64,000 nt of DNA from Candidatus Doudnabacteria bacterium (GTDB lineage: Bacteria; Patescibacteriota; Doudnabacteria; UBA920): assembly GCA_963768175.1 (NCBI GenBank), contig CAVYGQ010000001.1:382305-446304 (forward strand). Reading direction: 5' to 3'. The notes beneath the pieces were generated by a model. It had not been told where the DNA came from and did not search any database. It worked only from the letters and a program-made list of their open reading frames with translations. The translations under genes and the position numbers were made by a program. Shown here in pieces: positions 4,058 through 62,622 of this stretch. The stretch's first letter is position 1; each line of letters starts with the position of its first letter.

Positions 4058-4195
4058 ACAATGACAAAAATTAAAAAAATTAAATAAATGCCAAAAACGG
4101 CAGTTTACTGCCGTCCCGAATGGAATGAGGGATCCCTCGGATGCACTCGGGATGACAGCTATATAATAAATAGCGGTTTGTCATTTTTGCTCATT
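4058..4195. repeat. composite intergenic palindromic element: family A (TGACAAAAAT) with a nested family B core (gtcccgaatggaatgagggatccctcggatgcactcgggatgac)
   Basis: aatgacaaaaattaaaaaaat...ggcagtttactgcc hairpin, then a B core, then the inverted half gtttgtcatttttgctcatt. It lies between the ftsE stop and the ftsX start. Confidence 0.7.
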
Positions 4196-4871
4196 ATAAC
4201 TTGTAACTCCCCTTCTCCTGCTGCATGGTAATCCTCCCGTCTTCTATTGTCACCACGCGTTTTTTAATTTTATTAACAAGGTCAGAGGCATGGGTAGCTA
4301 ACATTACCGTAGTACCAAGCTGGTTGATTTTGAGCAGCAAATCCAAAACTTCGGCCGCGTTGACTGCATCCAAATTCCCCGTTGGTTCGTCAGCCAAAAG
4401 CAAAACCGGACGATGCGCTAAAGCCCGGGCAATAGCCACGCGTTGTTTTTCCCCGCCAGACAATTCTTCGGGAAAGCTGTTTTTTTTATGCAAAAGCCCT
4501 ACCAATTCCAAAATTTTAGGGACTTCATTTTGGATTTTCCTTTGGTTATGCCCGCAAACTTCCATGGCAAACGCCACGTTTTCAAATGCCGTGCGCCTGG
4601 GGAGCAACTTCATATCTTGAAACACCATACCGATTTTCCGCCTTAAATAAGGCAAATCCGATTTTCTTACCTGCGAAATATCCACGTCGTCTATTAAAAT
4701 TTTGCCACCGTCAATTTGCTCTTCACCAATAATTAACTTAAACAACGTGGTTTTACCGGCGCCTGACAACCCAACCAATGAAATAAATTCGCCATGATGA
4801 ATTTGCAAATTCACGCCGTCTAAAGCTTTGTTGTTTTGGTATTGTTTTACTACGTTTTCAAACTTAATCAT
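4194..4871 (-). CDS. ftsE: cell division ATP-binding protein FtsE
   Basis: Walker A GLSGAGKTT, ABC signature LSGGEKQRVAIARAL, Walker B LLLADEPTGNLD. The whole protein aligns collinearly with FtsE. Confidence 0.92.
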   Translation of the reverse strand: MIKFENVVKQYQNNKALDGVNLQIHHGEFISLVGLSGAGKTTLFKLIIGEEQIDGGKILIDDVDISQVRKSDLPYLRRKIGMVFQDMKLLPRRTAFENVAFAMEVCGHNQRKIQNEVPKILELVGLLHKKNSFPEELSGGEKQRVAIARALAHRPVLLLADEPTGNLDAVNAAEVLDLLLKINQLGTTVMLATHASDLVNKIKKRVVTIEDGRITMQQEKGSYKL

Positions 4872-7558: not shown

Positions 7559-7590
7559 CCCCCTCTTTTTCAAAGGAGGGGCTAGGGGAG
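7559..7590. repeat. GC hairpin (CCCCCTCTTTTTCAAAGGAGGGG) of the CCCCTC/GAGGGG hairpin family
   Basis: A perfect stem between the thyA start and the DUF559 gene stop. Related hairpins are at 7961-7990 and 16394-16513. Confidence 0.6.
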
Positions 7591-7591
7591 G

Positions 7592-7954
7592 TTATTTTTT
7601 TAGATGCCTTGATATTACTTCCAAAACTCCCTCTGTATTTTCCGTAATTTCTTTATTAGTGAATCTTAACACGGTAAAGCCCAAATCTTCAATATACTTT
7701 TGCCGCTCTTGATCCCCAACTCGGACCATTTGACCTGCGTAATGGCTATCCCCGTCTTCTTCAACAACCAGTTTAGCCGATGGGCAACAACAATCTACTA
7801 AAAATGGCCCGATCCCATATTGACGGCGAAATTTAAAACCTAACAGTTGATGGTTCCTCAACTTTGACCATAACAGACGTTCTATTGACGACTGGCTCCG
7901 GCGCAGCGTTCTCCTTAAATCTTTTTGGTCTTGCCGATTGAAGATATAAGCCAC
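7592..7954 (-). CDS. DUF559 endonuclease-domain protein (Vsr-like fold)
   Basis: 120 aa; FLVDCCCPSAKLVVEEDGDSH followed by LGFTVLRF, the hallmark of the DUF559 (very-short-patch-repair-like) family. It is bracketed by GC hairpins. Confidence 0.75.
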   Translation of the reverse strand: MAYIFNRQDQKDLRRTLRRSQSSIERLLWSKLRNHQLLGFKFRRQYGIGPFLVDCCCPSAKLVVEEDGDSHYAGQMVRVGDQERQKYIEDLGFTVLRFTNKEITENTEGVLEVISRHLKK

Positions 7955-7960
7955 AATAAC

Positions 7961-7990
7961 CTCCCTTAATCCCTCCTATAAATAGGAGGG
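7961..7990. repeat. GC hairpin CCCTCCTATAAATAGGAGGG
   Basis: A perfect 8-bp stem between the DUF559 gene start and the tmk stop. Confidence 0.6.
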
Positions 7991-9906: not shown

Positions 9907-9929
9907 AGAATAAATGACAAGATTGATAA

Positions 9930-9990
9930 GATTTAAATGATTGACAAGAATAGCTGTACAGAATTCTTGTCATTCATGTCATTGTTGTCA
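9930..9990. repeat. variant family A-like palindrome (gattgacaagaatagctgtacagaattcttgtcattcatgtcattgttgtcattc)
   Basis: Carries a GTCATT-type inverted repeat around a central agctgtacag core. Confidence 0.5.
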
Positions 9991-10542
9991 TTCTTTTAAT
10001 TTGATTAATATTTCATCAATCTTCCCAAACAACTCCTCTAAACTTCCTTCATTCACAATCGTCCAATCCGCACGCGCTATGGGGCCGGCTTGATTTAAAT
10101 TTTCAATCTGGGATTTGTCGCGTGATTCCAGTTCTTGTGCGGAAAGCGGCCTTTGCGGCCGTTTAGCCATGCGGGCCGCGCGCGTCGAAAAAGAAGAATA
10201 TATCGCTAAAACCTTAAATGCCTGCCCAAATTCTTTTTCCATAGCCAAGGACTCTTCCCAGCTGTATAAGCTTTCTATAATAACCGATGATGTTACAAAA
10301 AATTTTTTTACGGCCAGCAAATTGGCAACTGCCATTGCGGCCATGCCGTTTTGGGATCGAAATTCTTCGCGAACTAACTTCTCGTTTGCCTCGCTTAAAG
10401 ACAAACCGCGCTTTTGAACTTCATCCAAAACAGCCTGCCCGAAATAAACTTTGGGCCAACTAGTCTTCTTAAGCAGATAATCGGTTGTTTCTGTTTTTCC
10501 GGCTCCGGCTAAACCAACCACGGCAAGAACAATATTTGACAT
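9988..10542 (-). CDS. P-loop NTPase, putative (deoxy)nucleotide/nucleoside kinase (paralog 2)
   Basis: 184 aa; P-loop VVGLAGAGKTE, and the C-terminus ADWTIVNEGSLEELFGKIDEIL is paralogous to 8809-9369. Confidence 0.45.
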   Translation of the reverse strand: MSNIVLAVVGLAGAGKTETTDYLLKKTSWPKVYFGQAVLDEVQKRGLSLSEANEKLVREEFRSQNGMAAMAVANLLAVKKFFVTSSVIIESLYSWEESLAMEKEFGQAFKVLAIYSSFSTRAARMAKRPQRPLSAQELESRDKSQIENLNQAGPIARADWTIVNEGSLEELFGKIDEILIKLKE

Positions 10543-15837: not shown

Positions 15838-15930
15838 AATGAGCAAAAATGACATAATTGACAAAAATGAGCAAAAATTACTGCAGCTCTATTTTCGTCG
15901 TTTTTGTCACTTTTTTAATTTTTGTCATTA
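15838..15930. repeat. family A intergenic palindromic element with a central CTGCAG core
   Basis: aaatgagcaaaaatgacataattgacaaaaatgagcaaaaattactgcagct ... tttttgtcacttttttaatttttgtcatt. Confidence 0.75.
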
Positions 15931-18057: not shown

Positions 18058-18300
18058 GAAATGACAAAAATTAAAAAAATAATAAAAATGACAAAAGTGA
18101 CAAAAACGGCATTTATGCCGTCCCGAATGGAATGAGGGATCCCCCAACTTCGTTTCGGGACGATATCTATAATAATATTAAAAATAAGGTTTATCGTTTT
18201 TGTTCATTTCCGTCCGCCTCGGCTCGCGCTCGCCTCGATTCGACAATCAAGTCGAAGCGGGCCGAGCGAGACGGGTCGTTTTTGTCATTTCTGTCATTAG
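18058..18300. repeat. composite family A + family B element plus an extra GC hairpin
   Basis: atgacaaaaattaaaaaaataataaaaatgacaaaagtgacaaaaac, then ggcatttatgcc-gtcccgaatggaatgagggatccc (the B core), then a long imperfect hairpin cggctcgcgctcgcctcgattcgac...gtcgaagcgggccgagcgag, and finally ttttgtcatttctgtcatt. Confidence 0.7.
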
Positions 18301-23817: not shown

Positions 23818-23912
23818 TTCAATGACAAAAATTAAAAAAATGACAAAATTGACAAAAATATACTGCAGCTAATTTTTGCTCATTTCCTTCGTTTTCGTCA
23901 TTTTTGTTCATT
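23818..23912. repeat. family A intergenic palindromic element (about 95% identical to the 24721-24815 copy)
   Basis: aatgacaaaaattaaaaaaatgacaaaattgacaaaaatatactgcagctaatttttgctcatttccttcgttttcgtcatttttgttcattt. Confidence 0.8.
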
Positions 23913-23915
23913 TGG

Positions 23916-24716
23916 TTACTGTTTAACCACGAACACAAACTGCAAGTTGTCAAAATCTATGGGGCTAAGCAGGGCGGCCCTTTTAAACAGGTCGTTATCC
24001 GATGACAAAATATCGCTGACCTGACCGATTAAAATATTTTTGGGAATTTTTGCGTTTATGCCCGCGGTAACCACCAGCCAGCCCTTTTGCAAATCGGAGG
24101 TTTGCTGGACCTGGTCTAAAATCAACCCGGAACCAAAAGAGCCTTTAACCAAGGCCGTGGCGTTGGTTTGACTGACACGGGCGTCGGTAGAAAAGTTGGA
24201 ATCGGTGATGAGTAGCACGGTGCAGGATGAAGGTCCGGCGTAAATAATTTTTCCCACCAAATAGCCCTGGGAAATAACCGCCTGGCCCTCGTTTACGCCG
24301 TCACGGCTTCCGCAATTCAAAATCAAGGCATTGGTTTGGCCGAAAGGATTTTCTGACAACACCGTGCAGGCCACTAAAGGCTGAGAAGTATTTTTTACAA
24401 ACCCCAATTCCGCCCGAAGCGCCTGATTTTCCAGGCTTTGCTGGTTTTTGTCCACCAACTGCTGCTCCAGCTGCACCACCTGGGCCCTAAGTTGTCCGTT
24501 CTCCTGGCTGATTTTATCCAATTGATAAATAGTGGAAAAAAAAGTCTTTACAGGATGAGTAACGCCGTTAACCAGTGCCACGACCGGCCGGGGAACCTCC
24601 AAAAAAGCTATTCTAATAGGGTCCAGCCAACCTTTAAACTGCAGGAACACCAAAAACGCGAGCGCCAAAACGCAAGCCCCAAAAATCACAAAAGCTTTAG
24701 TATAAATAAAACGCAT
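23916..24716 (-). CDS. mreC: rod shape-determining protein MreC
   Basis: N-terminal TM, coiled coil (QLRAQVVQLEQQLVDKNQ), beta-rich C-domain, downstream of mreB. Confidence 0.8.
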   Translation of the reverse strand: MRFIYTKAFVIFGACVLALAFLVFLQFKGWLDPIRIAFLEVPRPVVALVNGVTHPVKTFFSTIYQLDKISQENGQLRAQVVQLEQQLVDKNQQSLENQALRAELGFVKNTSQPLVACTVLSENPFGQTNALILNCGSRDGVNEGQAVISQGYLVGKIIYAGPSSCTVLLITDSNFSTDARVSQTNATALVKGSFGSGLILDQVQQTSDLQKGWLVVTAGINAKIPKNILIGQVSDILSSDNDLFKRAALLSPIDFDNLQFVFVVKQ

Positions 24717-24720
24717 AAGA

Positions 24721-24815
24721 CTAATGACAAAAATTAAAAAAATGACAAAATTGACAAAAATACACTGCAGCTAATTTTTACTCATTTCCGTCGTTTTTGT
24801 CATTTTTGCTCATTT
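24721..24815. repeat. family A intergenic palindromic element
   Basis: ctaatgacaaaaattaaaaaaatgacaaaattgacaaaaatacactgcagctaatttttactcatttccgtcgtttttgtcatttttgctcattt. Confidence 0.8.
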
Positions 24816-24819
24816 CTTC

Positions 24820-25887
24820 TTACCTCGGTATCTTCGCGAACTCCGTAGGGACCAGCACGTCTTTTAACACCTCCAAATCTTCCACTACCACCCCCGCCCC
24901 ACGCACCACGCAGGTTAGCGGGTCTTCGGCAATATTCACAGGCATGGCCGTAACTTCGCGCACCAATTTGTCCAAACCGCGCAGCAAAGAGCCGCCACCG
25001 GCCATAATTATGCCTTTGTCCAAAATATCGGAAATCAGCTCCGGCGGAACTTCCTCAATAACGGCCTTAATGCTGTTAACAATACTCCTTAAGCTGTGCA
25101 TTAAGGCTTCGCGCACCTGCGTGTCGGAAATAGTCACTTCTTTGGGCAGGCCCGAGACTAAATCACGCCCGCGCATTTGCGCGTAAAGCGGTTGGCCGAG
25201 AGGGTAAGCGCTGCCGATTTTTATTTTTACGTCTTCGGCGCTGCGCTCGCCCAAAAGCAGATTAAAATTCTCGCGCGCGTACTGGATAATATTTTCATCC
25301 ATTTCATCCCCGGCTATACGGATACTTTTGGAAAGGACAATGCCGCCCAAAGAAATAACGGCAATCTCCGTAGTGCCTCCGCCGATGTCCACAATCATGT
25401 TACCCGTGGCGTCCTGAACGTTAAGCCTGGCCCCAATGGCCGCGGCCATAGGCTCTTCTATTAAATAAGCGCGGGCCGCACCGGCGTTAATGGCCGCGTC
25501 CTGCACGGCCCTGCGCTCCACCTCGGTAACGCCGGAAGGGATACCAATGACCACGCGCGGGCGGCGCAAAAAACTGTAGGTTTGTGCGTGGACTTTGTCT
25601 ATAAAATACCGGAGCATGGCTTCGGTAACTTCAAAATCTGAAATCACGCCGTCCACTAAAGGCCTGGTGGCCACAATGTGCGGCGGTGTGCGGCCCACCA
25701 TCAGCCTGGCTTCGTTGCCGATGGCCAAAATCTGCTTTGTGCGCTGGTTTACGGCAACTACGGAAGGCTCATTAATAACAATCCCCTTGCCTTTCACGTA
25801 GACAAGAGTGTTCGCCGTACCTAAATCTATGCCGATGTCTTTGCTGAATTTTTTGTAAAAGTTGCCAAACATTGTATAAAGTTTCAA
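24820..25887 (-). CDS. mreB: rod shape-determining actin homolog MreB
   Basis: IGIDLGTANTLVYV phosphate-1 motif, DIGGGTTE phosphate-2, and adenosine motif GGGSLLRGL. Confidence 0.93.
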   Translation of the reverse strand: MKLYTMFGNFYKKFSKDIGIDLGTANTLVYVKGKGIVINEPSVVAVNQRTKQILAIGNEARLMVGRTPPHIVATRPLVDGVISDFEVTEAMLRYFIDKVHAQTYSFLRRPRVVIGIPSGVTEVERRAVQDAAINAGAARAYLIEEPMAAAIGARLNVQDATGNMIVDIGGGTTEIAVISLGGIVLSKSIRIAGDEMDENIIQYARENFNLLLGERSAEDVKIKIGSAYPLGQPLYAQMRGRDLVSGLPKEVTISDTQVREALMHSLRSIVNSIKAVIEEVPPELISDILDKGIIMAGGGSLLRGLDKLVREVTAMPVNIAEDPLTCVVRGAGVVVEDLEVLKDVLVPTEFAKIPR

Positions 25888-25907
25888 AATTTATATTATA
25901 TTATAGC

Positions 25908-25996
25908 GGCGTCATCCTGAACCCGAAGTAGCAGACGAGGGATGAAGGATCTCTTGATGAGATTCCTCGCTCGGATGCTACTGCTCAGAATGACGC
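25908..25996. repeat. family B MITE-like element with terminal inverted repeats GGCGTCATCCTGA / TCAGAATGACGCC
   Basis: About 89 bp that fold as a long imperfect hairpin; the internal core is gggatgaaggatctc...gagattcctcgctcggatgctactgctc. Confidence 0.75.
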
Positions 25997-26036
25997 CTGT
26001 GTTTTAGTATTTGATTTTTGATTTTTGCGTCTTGCC

Positions 26037-27263
26037 TTATTTTGCCAATAAGACAATCAACTCTTTGATTTTCACCAATTTCGCTTCTGTCTCCAAACGC
26101 TTTTTTACTTCTACCGATTCCTGCGCCAAGGTCTTTTCCGAAACGATTATGCGATATGGAATGCCGATTAAATCGCTATCCGCGAATTTTACGCCAGGAC
26201 TTACGTCCCTATCATCATATAATACCTCAATCTGGGCATTTAATAAAGTCTGGTAAATTTCATCAGCCTTGGCTTCTGCGCCGTTGAGCGCCAAAAGATG
26301 GACTTTAAACGGGGCTACGGCTTCCGGCCAAATTATACCTTTATCGTCGTGGAATTTTTCCACAATAACACCCATTGCGCGGGTAGTGCCCAAACCATAG
26401 CAGCCCATTAAAACAATTTTTTTACTCCCGTCCCGCGCCGCGTACTGTAAATCAAAAGCTTTGGAATATTTGTCCTGCAACTTAAAAATATTGCCGACTT
26501 CCGAGCCCTTGGTTTCCCGCCAGGAAGTTTTGCCGCAATTTGAACACTTCGCGCCGTTTTGATAGATTTCCTTATTTTTTGCGAGCCGGCACTTTTCACA
26601 AACATAAATCGTATCCTCACCGTTTTCAATTTCAACCTGATACTCGTGGGAATATTTGGAAAAAGTTCCGCCTGAGGCCTCCGTCAAAATCGCGTCAAGA
26701 CCTAATCGCTTATAAACCGCCTCATAAGCCGGGATGGCTTTTTTGTTGTAATACTCTTCCAAATCTTCGGCATCCGCGTGAAAACTATACAAATCTTTCA
26801 TCCTAAATTCTCTGGTGCGCAATAAGCCGGTCTTGGCGCGCGGCTCATCCCGGAATTTGGTCTGAATTTGATAAACAGCCAAAGGCAAATCTTTATAACT
26901 GCTGATAATGGATTGAGCCGCGGGCGTAACGATTTCTTCATGAGTCGGCCCCAAGGCGTATTCGTTGCCGTGCTGGGATTTGATTTTAAACAATATGTCT
27001 AATGCAGCCCACCGGCCGGTCTTCTCCCAGTTTTCTTTGGGATGTAGCACTGACATAAACATTTCATCGCCGATTTTATCCATTTCGTCCCGAACAATGT
27101 TTTCAATTTTTTGCAGCACTCTTAAGCCCAATGGCAAAAAAGTATAAACCCCGGCCAGGACTTTTTGCACAAACCCGCCCTGCTCCAATAATTTGGCGTT
27201 TACCGACAAGTCATCGGCAGGAGTGGTTTTAGAAGTTTTTAAAAAATATTTACTTTGGCGCAT
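26037..27263 (-). CDS. proS: prolyl-tRNA synthetase (bacterial-type N-terminus, no INS editing domain)
   Basis: MRQSKYFLKTSKTTPADDLSVNAKLLEQGGFVQK plus class II motifs (motif 3 CYGLGTTRAMG). It is only 408 aa. Confidence 0.8.
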   Translation of the reverse strand: MRQSKYFLKTSKTTPADDLSVNAKLLEQGGFVQKVLAGVYTFLPLGLRVLQKIENIVRDEMDKIGDEMFMSVLHPKENWEKTGRWAALDILFKIKSQHGNEYALGPTHEEIVTPAAQSIISSYKDLPLAVYQIQTKFRDEPRAKTGLLRTREFRMKDLYSFHADAEDLEEYYNKKAIPAYEAVYKRLGLDAILTEASGGTFSKYSHEYQVEIENGEDTIYVCEKCRLAKNKEIYQNGAKCSNCGKTSWRETKGSEVGNIFKLQDKYSKAFDLQYAARDGSKKIVLMGCYGLGTTRAMGVIVEKFHDDKGIIWPEAVAPFKVHLLALNGAEAKADEIYQTLLNAQIEVLYDDRDVSPGVKFADSDLIGIPYRIIVSEKTLAQESVEVKKRLETEAKLVKIKELIVLLAK

Positions 27264-27285
27264 AAATAAATGTGGTTAGTTGTTT

Positions 27286-27698
27286 CCATCCCGACCGACG
27301 GCTGTCATCGCAATACTGAGCCGGCCGGAGTGGAGGGATCTGTTGTTTATTAATTGAGTGCCTTATATTCCCAAATTTTCAAATAAATCTTTCCAGCCCG
27401 GATTCATTTTTTCGATAAGAAAAATTTTCTTTTCTCTTCTCCAGTTTTTGAGCTGCTTTTCCCTAGCCAAGACTCCTTCAAAACTTTCACCTGCCTCATA
27501 ATACACTAATTTGTGGCATCTATATTTTTTTGTAAATCCATCCACGACGTCATTCTTATGTTCAAATACCCTTTTTCTTAAATCCGAAGTGAAGCCAATA
27601 TATAATGCTCCGCTTAAACTGGACATAATATACACATAATACTGGCCATCCATATATTTTAACAGATCCCTCGACTCGGATGCACTCGCTCGGGATGG
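27286..27698. mobile_element. GIY-YIG nuclease gene bracketed by family B-type inverted repeats (CCATCCCGA...GAGGGATCTGTT / AACAGATCCCTC...TCGGGATGG)
   Basis: Left arm at 27286-27344 and right arm at 27661-27698; the right arm is the reverse complement of the left with an internal deletion. The enclosed ORF is a GIY-YIG endonuclease. Confidence 0.6.
27363..27653 (-). CDS. GIY-YIG family nuclease (96 aa)
   Basis: YVYIMSSLSGALYIGFTSDLRKRVFEHK matches the GIY-YIG consensus. Confidence 0.85.
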   Translation of the reverse strand: MDGQYYVYIMSSLSGALYIGFTSDLRKRVFEHKNDVVDGFTKKYRCHKLVYYEAGESFEGVLAREKQLKNWRREKKIFLIEKMNPGWKDLFENLGI

Positions 27699-27706
27699 AA
27701 CACTGG

Positions 27707-28960
27707 CTACTTCCTAATTATATCGTGCACCGTAACCGCTATCATTAATAAAATTAAAAATATGAAACCGGCGGTGTTTACGATTTGCTCAATTTTCTGG
27801 TTGTTGCGTTTGCGGCGGACAGCTTCTATACACAAAAACAGTATCCGACCGCCGTCTAAGGCCGGAAACGGGAGGATGTTAAGGACGGCTAAATTCAACG
27901 ATAAAAACGCCGTGAACTGCATTAAAAACACAAACCCCAAACCGGTAACTTGTCCGGTAAGCCTGGCTATTTGTATAGGGCCGCCTAAGGACGAAAAACC
28001 GATATGTTGGACAAATAAACTATACAATCCATAAACTATTCCAACAAGACCGGTAACTGTGGCCAATCCGCCCTGCCAAATTGCCGTATACCAGGGGTAT
28101 TTTAGCCTGCCGAGCAAAGAAACCTCAATGCCCGTGGCACCCTGCCCGGGAGCCGGATTTACGTCAGGAATAATTTGAAAATTCAGATGTTGTTGCCCCC
28201 TTTGCACCTGGAAATCTATAGCCTTCCCTTGATGGGAATTAATGTAGCGCTGAAAATCGTCTACGGAATTGAAAGCGTTGCCGTCTATGGATAAAATTAC
28301 GTCATTTGGTTTTATGCCGGCTTTATCGGCAGGTAAATTTTTTTCAACATCCAAAACCGCAGTTTCCGGATGGGTTAAGGTGGCGTGTGCCGGAACGTCG
28401 GCCAGGCTGTTAATTGCCACGGGAAGGCCTATCATATATCCGGCCGAAAGTATTACCCAAGCTAAAATAACATTCATTGCCACGCCTGCCACCAGCGTAA
28501 AAAACCGCGGCCAAAAACCTTTGTTAATAAAACTTCCCGGGTGGTCTTCGTTGTCGTTATTTTCGCCTAAGATTTTTACAAACCCGCCCAAAGGAATCCA
28601 GTTGATGGAATAAACAGTATAATTTGGATTAAACGGCGGGCGATGCCCCCAGGTAAAATGCCATTTTTTCTTTGGCGTAATCTCATTAACTTCTCTGACT
28701 GTATCGGTAATCTTTTCAACAACAACTTCCTGCCCCGACGATTCAATGTCTTCGGTGGAGAAAGAAACGGTTTCCGTTTTACTGACTTTTGTAACCTGAT
28801 TTTCCTTGGATACCTGGATACCGACAATTCTCGGCGGGAACCCAAAACCAAACTCTTCCACTACCATGCCGGATTTTTTGGCTACGATGAAATGGCCAAA
28901 CTCGTGGACGAATACGAGCAGGCCGAGGATGACTATAAAAATAATTATTGTTAAAAACAT
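27707..28960 (-). CDS. rseP: site-2 protease (RIP zinc metalloprotease RseP family, M50)
   Basis: HEFGHFIVAK zincin motif, an internal PDZ domain, the second motif LNILPFPALDGG (LDG), and 4 TM helices. Confidence 0.88.
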   Translation of the reverse strand: MFLTIIIFIVILGLLVFVHEFGHFIVAKKSGMVVEEFGFGFPPRIVGIQVSKENQVTKVSKTETVSFSTEDIESSGQEVVVEKITDTVREVNEITPKKKWHFTWGHRPPFNPNYTVYSINWIPLGGFVKILGENNDNEDHPGSFINKGFWPRFFTLVAGVAMNVILAWVILSAGYMIGLPVAINSLADVPAHATLTHPETAVLDVEKNLPADKAGIKPNDVILSIDGNAFNSVDDFQRYINSHQGKAIDFQVQRGQQHLNFQIIPDVNPAPGQGATGIEVSLLGRLKYPWYTAIWQGGLATVTGLVGIVYGLYSLFVQHIGFSSLGGPIQIARLTGQVTGLGFVFLMQFTAFLSLNLAVLNILPFPALDGGRILFLCIEAVRRKRNNQKIEQIVNTAGFIFLILLMIAVTVHDIIRK

Positions 28961-28980
28961 AGACTAATTACAATAAATTT

Positions 28981-29116
28981 GGCGTCATTCTGAACGAGTG
29001 CATCCGAGTGAAGAATCTCTAACTTTGATGAGATCCTTCGCCCTTACCCATTCGGCTACGCCCAAGGTGCTTTGAGCCCAGTCGAAAGGCAGATGCATTC
29101 GGGCTCAGGATGACGC
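28981..29116. repeat. family B MITE-like element (GGCGTCATTCTGA ... TCAGGATGACGCC, 136 bp)
   Basis: Perfect 13-bp TIR; inside are gtgcatccgagtg and ttgatgagatcc, which are core variants. Confidence 0.75.
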
Positions 29117-29123
29117 CAAAGCA

Positions 29124-29681
29124 TTAAATCGTCATCACTTCCTTTTCTTTTGCCTCCGCGTGTTTCTTAATCTCTTCGTTATATTTATCCACTATTTCCT
29201 GAAGCTTTTTTTGGCCGGTTTCCAGCTGGTCTTTGCTGATCTTTTTATCGGCTTCCGCTTTCTTCATTTCTTTGTGGGTGGTTTCGCGCGCGTTGCGGAT
29301 GCCGATTTTTCCCTTTTCCGCCAACTGCCCCACGAGCTTTACCATCTCTTTTCTTCTTTCTTCGTTTAAAGCCGGCAGGTTAATACGGATTACTACGCCG
29401 TCACTGCTCGGGTTAAAACCTAAATTTGCCAATTGAATCCCTTTTTCAATAGCCTGGATTTGCCCTTTATCCCAGGGGCTAATGACTAAAGTTCTGGCAT
29501 CACTAACCGAAATCGAGGCCACGTGCTCCAGCGGCATTTTAGTGCCGTAGCTTTCCACTATTACGCTGTTAAGCAGCGCTGGGTTGGCTCGTCCGGTACG
29601 CACGCCGGAAAGTTCGTGCAAAAAATGTTCTAAGGCTTTTTCAAAATGTTCTTTGTTATCGTTTAAAATTTGGTCAATCAT
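29124..29681 (-). CDS. frr: ribosome recycling factor
   Basis: 185 aa collinear with RRF (VRTGRANPALLNSV, NLPALNEERRKE). Confidence 0.9.
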   Translation of the reverse strand: MIDQILNDNKEHFEKALEHFLHELSGVRTGRANPALLNSVIVESYGTKMPLEHVASISVSDARTLVISPWDKGQIQAIEKGIQLANLGFNPSSDGVVIRINLPALNEERRKEMVKLVGQLAEKGKIGIRNARETTHKEMKKAEADKKISKDQLETGQKKLQEIVDKYNEEIKKHAEAKEKEVMTI

Positions 29682-30851: not shown

Positions 30852-30946
30852 TAGCGACCCTAATATCCGAATGTCATCCGAATTATCCGAATCAAACCCT
30901 TTCGGGTCATTCGGGTTTTAATTCGTATCATTCGGATCGGTTATAT
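30852..30946. repeat. family C leader element, second copy
   Basis: tagcgaccctaatatccgaatgtcatccgaattatccgaatcaaaccctttcgggtcattcgggttttaattcgtatcattcggatcggtta. It is a direct repeat of 29684-29788 and flanks the BNR gene on its other side. Confidence 0.7.
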
Positions 30947-31792: not shown

Positions 31793-31883
31793 AACAATGA
31801 TGTAGTTTTTCGATTTCTATGTTTAAATTATAACATCAAAAACCGCTTTAAGCAAAAAGTAGGTTAGGGGCATGTCTCGCTAA

Positions 31884-31926
31884 CAAGGGGCATCCTTGTG
31901 CTGCACAAGGATGCCCCTTGTTTTTT
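31884..31926 (+). terminator. hairpin CAAGGGGCATCCTTGTGCTGCACAAGGATGCCCCTTG + T6 (family F)
   Basis: 17-bp stem with loop GCTG and a TTTTTT tail. It is oriented for + strand termination although both neighbours are on the minus strand. Confidence 0.6.
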
Positions 31927-32730: not shown

Positions 32731-32777
32731 TATTTCTTTTTATTGTTATCCCGAACGGAGTAAGGGATCTCTTTACC

Positions 32778-53035: not shown

Positions 53036-53100
53036 CAAAATCTAAATTATCTATACTATTTTAGCGGAAAATACGTACCTGGTCAATTTGCTCTTATAAC

Positions 53101-53135
53101 AATGGGCACCATTGTGCTGCACAATGGTGCCCATT
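53101..53135 (+). terminator. hairpin AATGGGCACCATTGTGCTGCACAATGGTGCCCATT (family F, sister of 31884-31926)
   Basis: 15-bp stem with the same GTGCTGCAC loop. The stem differs from the other copy by compensatory substitutions. Confidence 0.55.
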
Positions 53136-53315
53136 GTTTATGATACAAAATTAGCGGTTTTTTGGTTTTAGCGGTAAAATTAAAGTAAAGCAATAAGCTT
53201 TAAAATTAATGGATCTTAGACACTACCGCAAACGTAATACATAAGAGACCCCCCTATTTTATCGTTTTTGCTAAAAATCAGCCTTTGTTGTCTAATAAAC
53301 AGTTACTTGTAACAA

Positions 53316-62522: not shown

Positions 62523-62622
62523 GGCGTCATTCTGAGGCTGAAGTAGCTAACGAAAGCCGAAGAATCTCATCTTTTAAAATTTTAAGTTCCTTCGGTCGGA
62601 TTCCCTCCCTCAGGATGACGCC
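62523..62622. repeat. family B MITE-like element (GGCGTCATTCTGAGG ... CCTCAGGATGACGCC)
   Basis: Perfect 15-bp TIRs, 100 bp overall. Confidence 0.75.

Follow-up and report, generated by a model that had tools for sequence, protein, structure and literature searches.

A small GIY-YIG nuclease gene and its dispersed hairpin repeats in Candidatus Doudnabacteria: a probable Ssn/SRM system with a distinct repeat sub-type

A 64,000-nucleotide stretch of a Candidatus Doudnabacteria genome (GenBank assembly GCA_963768175.1, contig CAVYGQ010000001.1, positions 382,305 to 446,304; hereafter the window, numbered from its first base) carries a gene for a small GIY-YIG nuclease that lies between two inverted hairpin repeats, and further copies of the repeat are dispersed in the intergenic DNA of the window. 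Judged from sequence comparison, this locus is very probably an Ssn/SRM system, in which the GIY-YIG protein belongs to the Ssn family and the repeats are its cognate SRMs. Systems of this kind are already known, having been described in 2025 mainly from Pseudomonadota (Chenal et al. 2025, Nat Commun, PMC11893778); the repeat of the window is a distinct sub-type. New are a class of hairpins with tandem G.A pairs and a long interior, a host that resembles members of the Candidate Phyla Radiation (CPR), and a comparative series of gain or loss of the gene cassette at one orthologous site.

Ssn proteins are single-domain GIY-YIG proteins of about 94 amino acids (CDD cd10448), with membership defined by an E-value below 1e-10 to SsnA of Neisseria meningitidis (NMV_0044/NMB0047). 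SsnA binds the hairpin repeat NTS (CGTCATTCCCGCGMAVGCGGGAATCYRG), and only as single-stranded DNA (ssDNA). It cuts one strand only, just upstream of the repeat, and leaves the reverse strand uncut; it is inactive on double-stranded DNA (dsDNA) and on RNA, does not bind RNA, and lowers transformation by DNA that bears NTS. At least one SRM is found near 71% of Ssn homologues, and SRMs lie on either side of 42% (all PMC11893778).

The ssn-like gene of the window (27363–27653, minus strand) is an intact open reading frame (ORF) encoding a protein of 96 amino acids, in which PF01541 is the sole Pfam domain (residues 4–76, E = 2.8e-14). Across 20 homologues compared, residues Y18, G20, R28, H32, E65 and N84 are invariant and Y8 is nearly so. 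The size is that of the Ssn family, with no extra DNA-binding domain; homologues range from 86 to 100 amino acids. A search with Pfam and NCBIfam profiles found no transposase domain and GIY-YIG as the only domain, and the NCBIfam model for group I intron endonucleases (grpIintron_endo, TIGR01453) reached 18 bits, with its cut-off at 56.05, and aligned to 30 residues only. The gene stands in the row frr – rseP – GIY – proS – mreB, with every gene on the minus strand. A promoter-like sequence (ATGATA-17-TATAAT, 10 of 12 matches) is present on the minus strand at 27717–27745, inside the 3' end of rseP; its place just upstream of the gene-proximal SRM and of the GIY start could permit independent transcription of the nuclease gene.

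When searched with tblastn, a 94-amino-acid ORF of Neisseria gonorrhoeae (NZ_CP119140.1) matches the window protein at E = 5e-17; by BLASTP the two are 45% identical, with E = 1e-28, well below the 1e-10 that defines the family. This ORF is surrounded by canonical NTS copies; its length and these flanks lead us to infer orthology with SsnA. (PLSDB lists the record as a plasmid, but at 2.17 Mb it must be the chromosome.) A sequence search of the PDB returned no Ssn structure and a single distant structure of the UPF0213 family (E = 5.5e-5). UPF0213 proteins (B. halodurans BH0048, PDB 1zg2; E. coli YhbQ) also consist of one GIY-YIG domain of about 100 amino acids, but the match is far weaker than that to Neisseria, which argues against UPF0213 as an alternative small-GIY family.

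Homologues of the protein are widespread: a word-indexed search returned 732, and a scan of genomes matched at least 584 stretches. The matches listed come from Patescibacteria, Omnitrophota, Chloroflexota, Ignavibacteria, Pseudomonadota, Bifidobacterium and Clostridia, at 51–85% identity, and the closest among them are from Patescibacteria; the genome scan gave 51–73% for matches in Patescibacteria, Chloroflexota, Pseudomonadota, Bifidobacterium and others. To characterize their surroundings we took 80 homologous loci from many phyla with 150-nt flanks, and used a unit detector requiring [GT][TC]CAT, a perfect 5-nt stem that starts from the AT, and then C. A forward unit was present upstream in 49 loci and a reverse unit downstream in 50; both were present in 40, and any unit in 66. 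Shuffled flanks gave about one or fewer, and the opposite orientations were seen only 17 and 25 times. NTS-type flanks accompany several homologues at 51–57% identity, and one of them, ccgtcattcccgcgcaggcgggaatccag at locus L048, is an exact match to the published NTS consensus. A stricter detector with a 6-nt perfect stem missed all units of the window because of the G.A step described below, and was therefore relaxed to 5 nt; since the relaxed version is noisy genome-wide (17 matches against 10.8 expected), the inventory of units given below rests on a covariance model instead. One group of loci (L010, 3880–4500, and also L011–L019) has a 71%-identical GIY-YIG gene placed between COX2 and COX1 of a cytochrome oxidase operon; at L010 five SRM units of alternating orientation and two stem types (ATCCC, ATTCC) surround the gene.

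The units of the 80 loci comprise 15 stem types. While stem positions 1–5 are fitted by the detector, positions 6–8 are independent of it. Position 8 is a Watson-Crick pair in 109 of 126 units (CG 56, GC 43, AT 9), and positions 6 and 7 are either Watson-Crick (58 and 59 units, respectively) or G.A/A.G (58 and 55 units). The covariation score calculated from pair counts is 0.506, compared to 0.14 in shuffles, and was exceeded in none of 500. The pairing at these positions defines two classes of unit: one with an 8-bp Watson-Crick stem, and one with a 5-bp stem followed by tandem G.A pairs and a closing pair. The units of the window belong to the second.

A covariance model (R1) was built from 36 tandem-G.A units that lie beside GIY-YIG homologues of other organisms, none being taken from the window. 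With filters off, R1 finds exactly 12 units in the 64 kb (E = 3.6e-6 to 0.036), the next match having E = 0.36. All 12 are intergenic, and they coincide with the elements that the initial annotation had grouped as one family; nothing else was recovered. Two of them frame the nuclease gene, so that a model trained on foreign sequences places an SRM on either side of it, as in the Ssn systems flanked on both sides. The upstream unit, GTTCCATCCCGAGCGAGTGCATCCGAGTCGAGGGATCTGT (27662–27701, minus; 32.4 bits, E = 2.5e-5), reads in the sense of the gene and stops 8 nt short of its ATG. The downstream unit (27283–27343, plus; 28.3 bits, E = 2.2e-4) is inverted relative to the upstream one and has a long interior; it has orthologous units, about 90% conserved, in two related lineages discussed below (L001 and L101). 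The flanks themselves had been described as CCATCCCGA...GGAGGGATCTGTT at 27286–27344 with an inverted counterpart at 27661–27698 around an ORF at 27363–27653, and this is how they read.

Six further units form three head-to-head doublets, the family B elements. Element 1 (25908–25997, 90 bp), in the gap between proS and mreB, has its arms at 25909–25954 (plus) and 25958–25996 (minus; E = 3.9e-4 and 3.9e-3). Element 2 (28981–29117, 137 bp), between frr and rseP, has its arms at 28982–29020 (plus) and 29029–29116 (minus; E = 1.1e-5 and 5e-3), the right one with a long interior. Element 3 (62523–62622, 100 bp) has arms at 62524–62569 (plus) and 62583–62621 (minus; E = 7.4e-4 and 0.023), of which the right is degenerate. 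A compact doublet at 4108–4158, made of units at 4128–4158 (minus, E = 3.6e-6) and 4108–4137 (plus, E = 3.7e-3) with GGGATCCC as common centre, sits in the loop of an AT-rich palindrome of family A, and a unit at 18115–18144 (plus, E = 0.036), whose partner arm is degenerate, lies within another family A copy; core fragments had been predicted at both places. The last unit is single (32743–32772, plus; 26 bits, E = 7.9e-4) and lies directly 5' of the start codon of the next gene (ATG at about 32777), called miaA in the initial annotation, which had noted a fragment there. Three arrangements are thus found in the window: single units, head-to-head doublets, and the inward-facing pair that encloses the nuclease gene. 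Those adjacent to the gene have a TCCAT flank, the others a flank of GGCGTCAT type.

The same elements are apparent from word counts. The 13-mer GGCGTCATYCTGA occurs exactly six times in the window, forming three inverted pairs: 25908–25920 (plus) with 25985–25997 (minus), 28981–28993 (plus) with 29105–29117 (minus), and 62523–62535 (plus) with 62610–62622 (minus). With up to two mismatches there are 8 matches against 1.7 expected, a number reached in none of 100 shuffles. The stand-alone copies reported earlier are therefore present, although two of them end one base further to the right (25997 and 29117) and the terminal repeats of all three, reported as perfect, agree at 12 of 13 positions. 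That the gene flanks and the short elements belong to one repeat family, a claim that a failure to align would have overturned, is borne out both by their recovery with R1 and by a MAFFT alignment of all 12 units, which brings the flanks of the GIY gene into line with the family B arms. The interior CGAGTGCATCCGAGT is common to the upstream unit and to the left arm of element 2; the two differ in their stems alone, where the changes are compensated (ATCCC/GGGAT against ATTCT/AGAAT).

The units are oriented modules, about 30–90 nt long, each comprising a 5' GTCAT (TCCAT beside the gene), a hairpin stem that begins with the AT of this motif, and a 3' ATC(T/C). In the variant of the window, five Watson-Crick pairs are followed by two tandem G.A/A.G pairs, one further pair and a variable interior. 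One arm of a doublet carries ATCCT and the other ATTCT, so the arms mismatch each other, but the self-pairing within each arm is compensated (ATCCT/AGGAT, ATTCT/AGAAT), and it is perfect in both arms of element 2 and in the left arm of elements 1 and 3. The conserved structure is thus the local hairpin of each arm and not a stem formed between arms. The description of these sequences as terminal inverted repeats, in the sense of simple transposon ends, accordingly did not hold: each arm is an oriented hairpin unit with a GTCAT-type flank and compensation within itself. Folded as DNA, whole doublets are nevertheless predicted to form long hairpins (element 1, -24.6 kcal/mol, z = -5.7; element 2, -30.8 kcal/mol, z = -4.7; element 3, z = -3.8).

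Several observations weigh against assignment to the Ssn/SRM system. With nearest-neighbour DNA parameters, single units of the window fold only weakly (-2.7 kcal/mol, z about 0). These parameters may under-credit tandem G.A pairs. Unusual stability distinguishes two DNA motifs, tandem sheared G.A pairs and the GCGAAGC mini-hairpin; the latter is present in many of these units, and both fit a structure adopted by single-stranded DNA. The published SRM pattern, HGTCWYN(0-2)YYVSBRHN(0-5)WNVSBRGN(0-2)RNCYNB, has no match in the window, because the interiors exceed the loop it allows and because of the tandem G.A step; even in the 80 loci it matches just 7 upstream and 10 downstream flanks, which also shows that our implementation of the pattern works. 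The units that flank the gene carry TCCAT and not GTCAT. The protein comparison was made with the N. gonorrhoeae orthologue, which is distinct from the assayed N. meningitidis protein. Finally, the NTS copies nearest to the N. gonorrhoeae gene (L187, 1000–1700) face outward, being reverse upstream and forward downstream, whereas those of the window face inward, as is the prevailing layout in the 80 other loci, so the functional geometry may differ.

Set beside the Ssn/NTS system as published, the window locus shares a single-domain GIY-YIG protein of about 95 amino acids, a gene flanked on both sides by an oriented GTCAT-type / ATC(Y) hairpin, dispersal of the repeat in intergenic DNA, and covarying stems; these broad features, including the hairpin that starts from AT, are present in the units of the window. 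It differs in the hairpin itself (a 5-bp stem with tandem G.A and an interior of 10–69 nt, compared to an 8-bp stem and a short loop in NTS), in the prevalence of head-to-head doublets, in the TCCAT of the gene-flanking units, and in a CPR-like host with a small genome (the contig measures 949 kb), a group not mentioned in PMC11893778. Likeness in both protein and repeat leads us to regard the Ssn/SRM assignment as the best account of the locus, with the differences marking a sub-type.

The repeats might instead act mainly at the level of RNA, as stem-loops that terminate or stabilize transcripts in the manner of repetitive extragenic palindromic (REP) sequences, the link to GIY-YIG being secondary. 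Doublets do lie between co-directional genes (frr, rseP, proS, mreB), their long hairpins have z-scores of -3.8 to -5.7, and one unit ends 8 nt before the GIY start and another just before the ATG at about 32777. Scans for terminators and promoters, however, gave nothing tied to the repeat elements, and no terminator-like T-tracts follow them. Rfam returned only tRNAs at gathering thresholds and, for 25700–29300, two chance-level matches at permissive thresholds, so that no known RNA family explains the repeats. What points instead to recognition by a protein is that the units have a conserved, oriented GTCAT on their 5' side and a strongly biased orientation beside GIY genes, and the assayed Ssn enzymes do not bind RNA (PMC11893778). 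Given the oriented recognition features, the want of terminator tails and of an Rfam match, and the failure of assayed enzymes to bind RNA, we consider a primary role in RNA very improbable.

Syntenic relatives were obtained from a metagenome scan with ProS, yielding ten lineages including the window. Four of them (the window, L101, L001 and L003) carry the cassette in the rseP/proS gap, and six (L100, L102, L103, L104, L106 and L107) lack it. A neighbour-joining tree from Frr, ProS, MreB and RseP has the form (L001+, ((L107-, (L003+, L106-)), ((L101+, L102-), (L104-, (L103-, (L100-, window+)))))), where '+' denotes the cassette: each cassette-bearing lineage is sister to a cassette-less lineage, and the slot is always rseP/proS. 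The closest relative of the window, L100 (Frr 96%, MreB 97%), has an empty site of 7 nt between the two genes (TAA-tctt-ATG). The empty target sites sought by the initial annotation are thus found in six of the ten lineages, the closest among them.

Variation extends to the gene-less repeats. The proS/mreB doublet is found in the window, L100 and L104, and is absent from L103, L102, L003 and L106; the frr/rseP doublet is common to the window and L104 only. In L001 and L101 an extra pair of units, reverse and forward, stands between the gene and the last unit and is not seen in the window, so arrays of units vary too. Within the L101 lineage, a comparison of strain contigs (L180–L186) revealed no fine-scale SRM polymorphism, the contigs being essentially identical around the cassette. 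The insertion polymorphism that had been anticipated is accordingly real at the level of related genomes: both the gene cassette and the doublets have been gained or lost at fixed intergenic slots, and the data show turnover there. The history of the cassette may be one ancient gain followed by about six losses, or several independent gains at one site.

Between L003 and L106, whose protein sequences diverge by 5%, there is an indel of about 447 nt with a 12-nt direct repeat, AATAAAGAAATA, at its borders; this repeat is AT-rich, is the only direct repeat seen, and is a single case, and it could equally have mediated a deletion. The gap of L102 starts with TAAagtgttaaca (agtgttaaca), which is compatible with the outer TGTT/AACA arms having been rejoined; this is a hint of an excision footprint, L102 being too diverged from L101 for more.

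Working by analogy with the assayed Neisseria and Wolbachia enzymes, the protein would bind the folded unit, as ssDNA only and on the GTCAT/TCCAT strand only, and would hydrolyse that strand a few nucleotides 5' of the motif. For inward-facing units, cuts are predicted at the outer edges of a cassette or doublet, one per strand. In Neisseria, incoming transforming DNA that bears the motif is cut and recombination shaped in consequence; a comparable role on ssDNA, in transformation or in replication intermediates, seems most likely here. A single cut per single strand argues against excision from one strand in the style of IS200/IS605, and the geometry would fit nicking that either destroys incoming ssDNA or provokes recombination.

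The obvious alternative, and the one proposed at the outset, is that the GIY-YIG protein mobilizes an element with terminal repeats, of which the 90–137-bp doublets are internally deleted, non-autonomous copies moved in trans, as miniature inverted-repeat transposable elements (MITEs) are. The layout is indeed that of an insertion sequence: inverted units surround a nuclease gene, the doublets show this topology with the gene left out, and, as with MITEs derived from DDE transposons, short gene-less elements have ends in common with a gene-carrying one. Presence and absence of the cassette at a single orthologous site, the indel of L003/L106 with its 12-nt direct repeat, and the proS/mreB doublet shared with L100 and L104 but missing from L103 can all be read in this way. 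Against it, we know of no strand transfer or covalent intermediate among GIY-YIG enzymes, which are hydrolytic nucleases, and the protein lies outside any known transposase class. The target-site duplications that were expected are not seen in the sequence bordering any of the three doublets (in two of which the inverted repeat merely extends by TTT/AAA), and the one 12-nt repeat, at the L003 cassette, is AT-rich and equally compatible with deletion. The ends, unlike those of DDE-derived MITEs, fold on themselves with compensation inside each arm. A tblastn search of the window with the protein found only the gene itself, and hence no second copy or relic in the loops of doublets. The assayed relatives cut one strand of ssDNA only, so that an inverted pair provides one cut per strand, yet their authors do remark on the likeness to insertion sequences and to REP/RAYT, and leave the mobility of an NTS-ssnA-NTS cassette open (PMC11893778).

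The age of the cassette bears on the same question. Identity at four-fold sites between the GIY gene and its syntenic counterparts is 0.53–0.56 (n = 18–19), compared to 0.44–0.54 for the neighbours; being no higher than theirs, it gives no sign of recent movement and suggests long residence. A sliding-window identity scan showed the window to be closest to L100 in the tail of rseP, with no clear switch at the start of proS, and detected no co-conversion tract beside the cassette. Recent horizontal transfer of the cassette was also considered, and rejected as unsupported, on the grounds of neighbour-like four-fold identity and the lack of a co-conversion tract, albeit from small samples. All things considered, the likeness to an insertion sequence stands, but with arms that are self-folding oriented hairpins, a family of hydrolytic ssDNA nucleases and no sign of recent movement, we judge a transposon with MITEs to be unlikely. 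The short elements may descend from the element that carries the gene, or that element from them.

A further alternative is a selfish cassette of homing type. A nick made by the nuclease in ssDNA at the SRM hairpin would lead to fork collapse or recombination that copies the gene into a gene-less SRM site or, following uptake of DNA, into the corresponding slot of a related genome. Homing endonucleases of the I-TevI type resemble the protein in their GIY-YIG catalytic domain and in the selfish-looking, patchy occurrence of the gene, and the pattern of four GIY-positive lineages, each sister to a GIY-negative one at the same rseP/proS slot, is what homing might produce. So too is the roughly 90% identity of the downstream unit in the window, L101 and L001 despite near-saturated synonymous sites, although purifying selection on a functional site would explain it equally well, and the 71%-identical homologues in the cytochrome oxidase operon of an unrelated organism (L010) imply horizontal spread. 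Yet nucleotide identity beside the cassette reveals no co-conversion tract, and the empty sites of L100 and L104 have no SRM that could have served as target. The window protein moreover has neither the DNA-binding domain nor the intron or intein context of I-TevI-type enzymes, and the Ssn substrate is ssDNA and not dsDNA. Homing of this kind appears doubtful, and we would rank it below the transposon with MITEs.

It is possible that Ssn itself spreads the repeats, by analogy with REP/RAYT. REPs and REPINs, with their RAYT enzymes (HUH Y1 proteins like those of IS200/IS605), present the same picture of short intergenic hairpin repeats, often as inverted doublets, a single-copy nuclease gene flanked by repeats, and recognition of hairpins in ssDNA. 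The enzymes are of unrelated fold: Ssn is a hydrolytic GIY-YIG nuclease, whereas RAYT is a HUH tyrosine enzyme with a covalent intermediate, and mobilization by Ssn is hypothetical.

The neighbouring slots add to the picture of small cassettes. In relatives, the frr/rseP gap that holds element 2 in the window contains a PDDEXK_3 gene between CACAGAT-type inverted repeats (L103, 1887–2416; L106, 1855–2335; L003, 2360–2838), a 23S_rRNA_IVP-like gene that is frameshifted and has inverted repeats of its own (L100, 2334–2833), or an unrelated 183-aa ORF (L102, 2262–2829). The slot seems to be a hot spot for cassettes of different kinds, each combining a small gene with repeats. The rseP/proS gap of one subclade, L003 (4404–4940), L106 (3455–3991) and L107, contains a 178-aa ORF, bounded by proS on one side and by rseP or the GIY cassette on the other; it has a weak match to sigma-70 region 4 (E = 0.005, below the Pfam cut-off). 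The window itself has a second small nuclease gene with the same gene-between-inverted-units layout: a DUF559 (Vsr-like) ORF of 120 amino acids (7592–7954, minus; Pfam E = 2.3e-33), between thyA and tmk, is flanked by inverted 36-nt units at 7561–7596 and 7955–7990 (7561–7990 in all). Each unit consists of a local CCCTC..GAGGG hairpin with a GGGAGG tail after it, a pattern that occurs at only these two places in the window, compared to 0 expected.

A broader and more speculative proposal, to which we give limited though not negligible credence, somewhat more than to the transposon with MITEs, combines these strands. Ssn would be the engine of an undescribed hairpin-directed mobility, a GIY-YIG counterpart of RAYT/REPIN or IS200/IS605, that spreads doublets and cassette; and in small CPR-type genomes, unrelated genes for small proteins would have converged on the inverted-pair layout and compete for slots, namely GIY-YIG with SRM, PDDEXK_3 with CACAGAT, DUF559 with CCCTCC..GGAGGG, and 23S-rRNA-IVP four-helix-bundle proteins with repeats of their own.

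Other repeats of the window are of different kinds. Family A consists of inverted repeats that are AT-rich and composed of AATGACAAAAAT-type words (9912–10002, 15844–15924, 18078–18298, 23838–24057, 24723–24807 and 4060–4200); since two of its copies hold an SRM doublet in the loop (4108–4158 and 18115–18165), one repeat family is found inside another. Two 41-nt perfect palindromes form a further family (31882–31922 and 53098–53138, AACAAGGGGCATCCTTGTGC and AACAATGGGCACCATTGTGC, each with its reverse complement); each arm itself resembles a small hairpin, and the changes that distinguish one copy from the other are paired. An intergenic element at 30860–30940, made of ATCCGAAT / ATTCGGAT repeat words and starting with GTCAT, matched the loose detector and not R1, and probably represents a different repeat family.

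The very probable Ssn/SRM assignment would extend the range of these systems from mainly Pseudomonadota to a CPR-like, reduced genome. Because the class with tandem G.A pairs and a long interior escapes the published pattern, current counts of SRMs probably miss many. For the mobility of NTS-ssnA-NTS cassettes, the series of ten lineages, four with and six without the cassette at the same site and one with a clean 7-nt empty site, supplies a concrete case that can be tested. Finally, every new pair of nuclease and hairpin is a candidate site-specific cutter of ssDNA with a different specificity, which may be of use in biotechnology.

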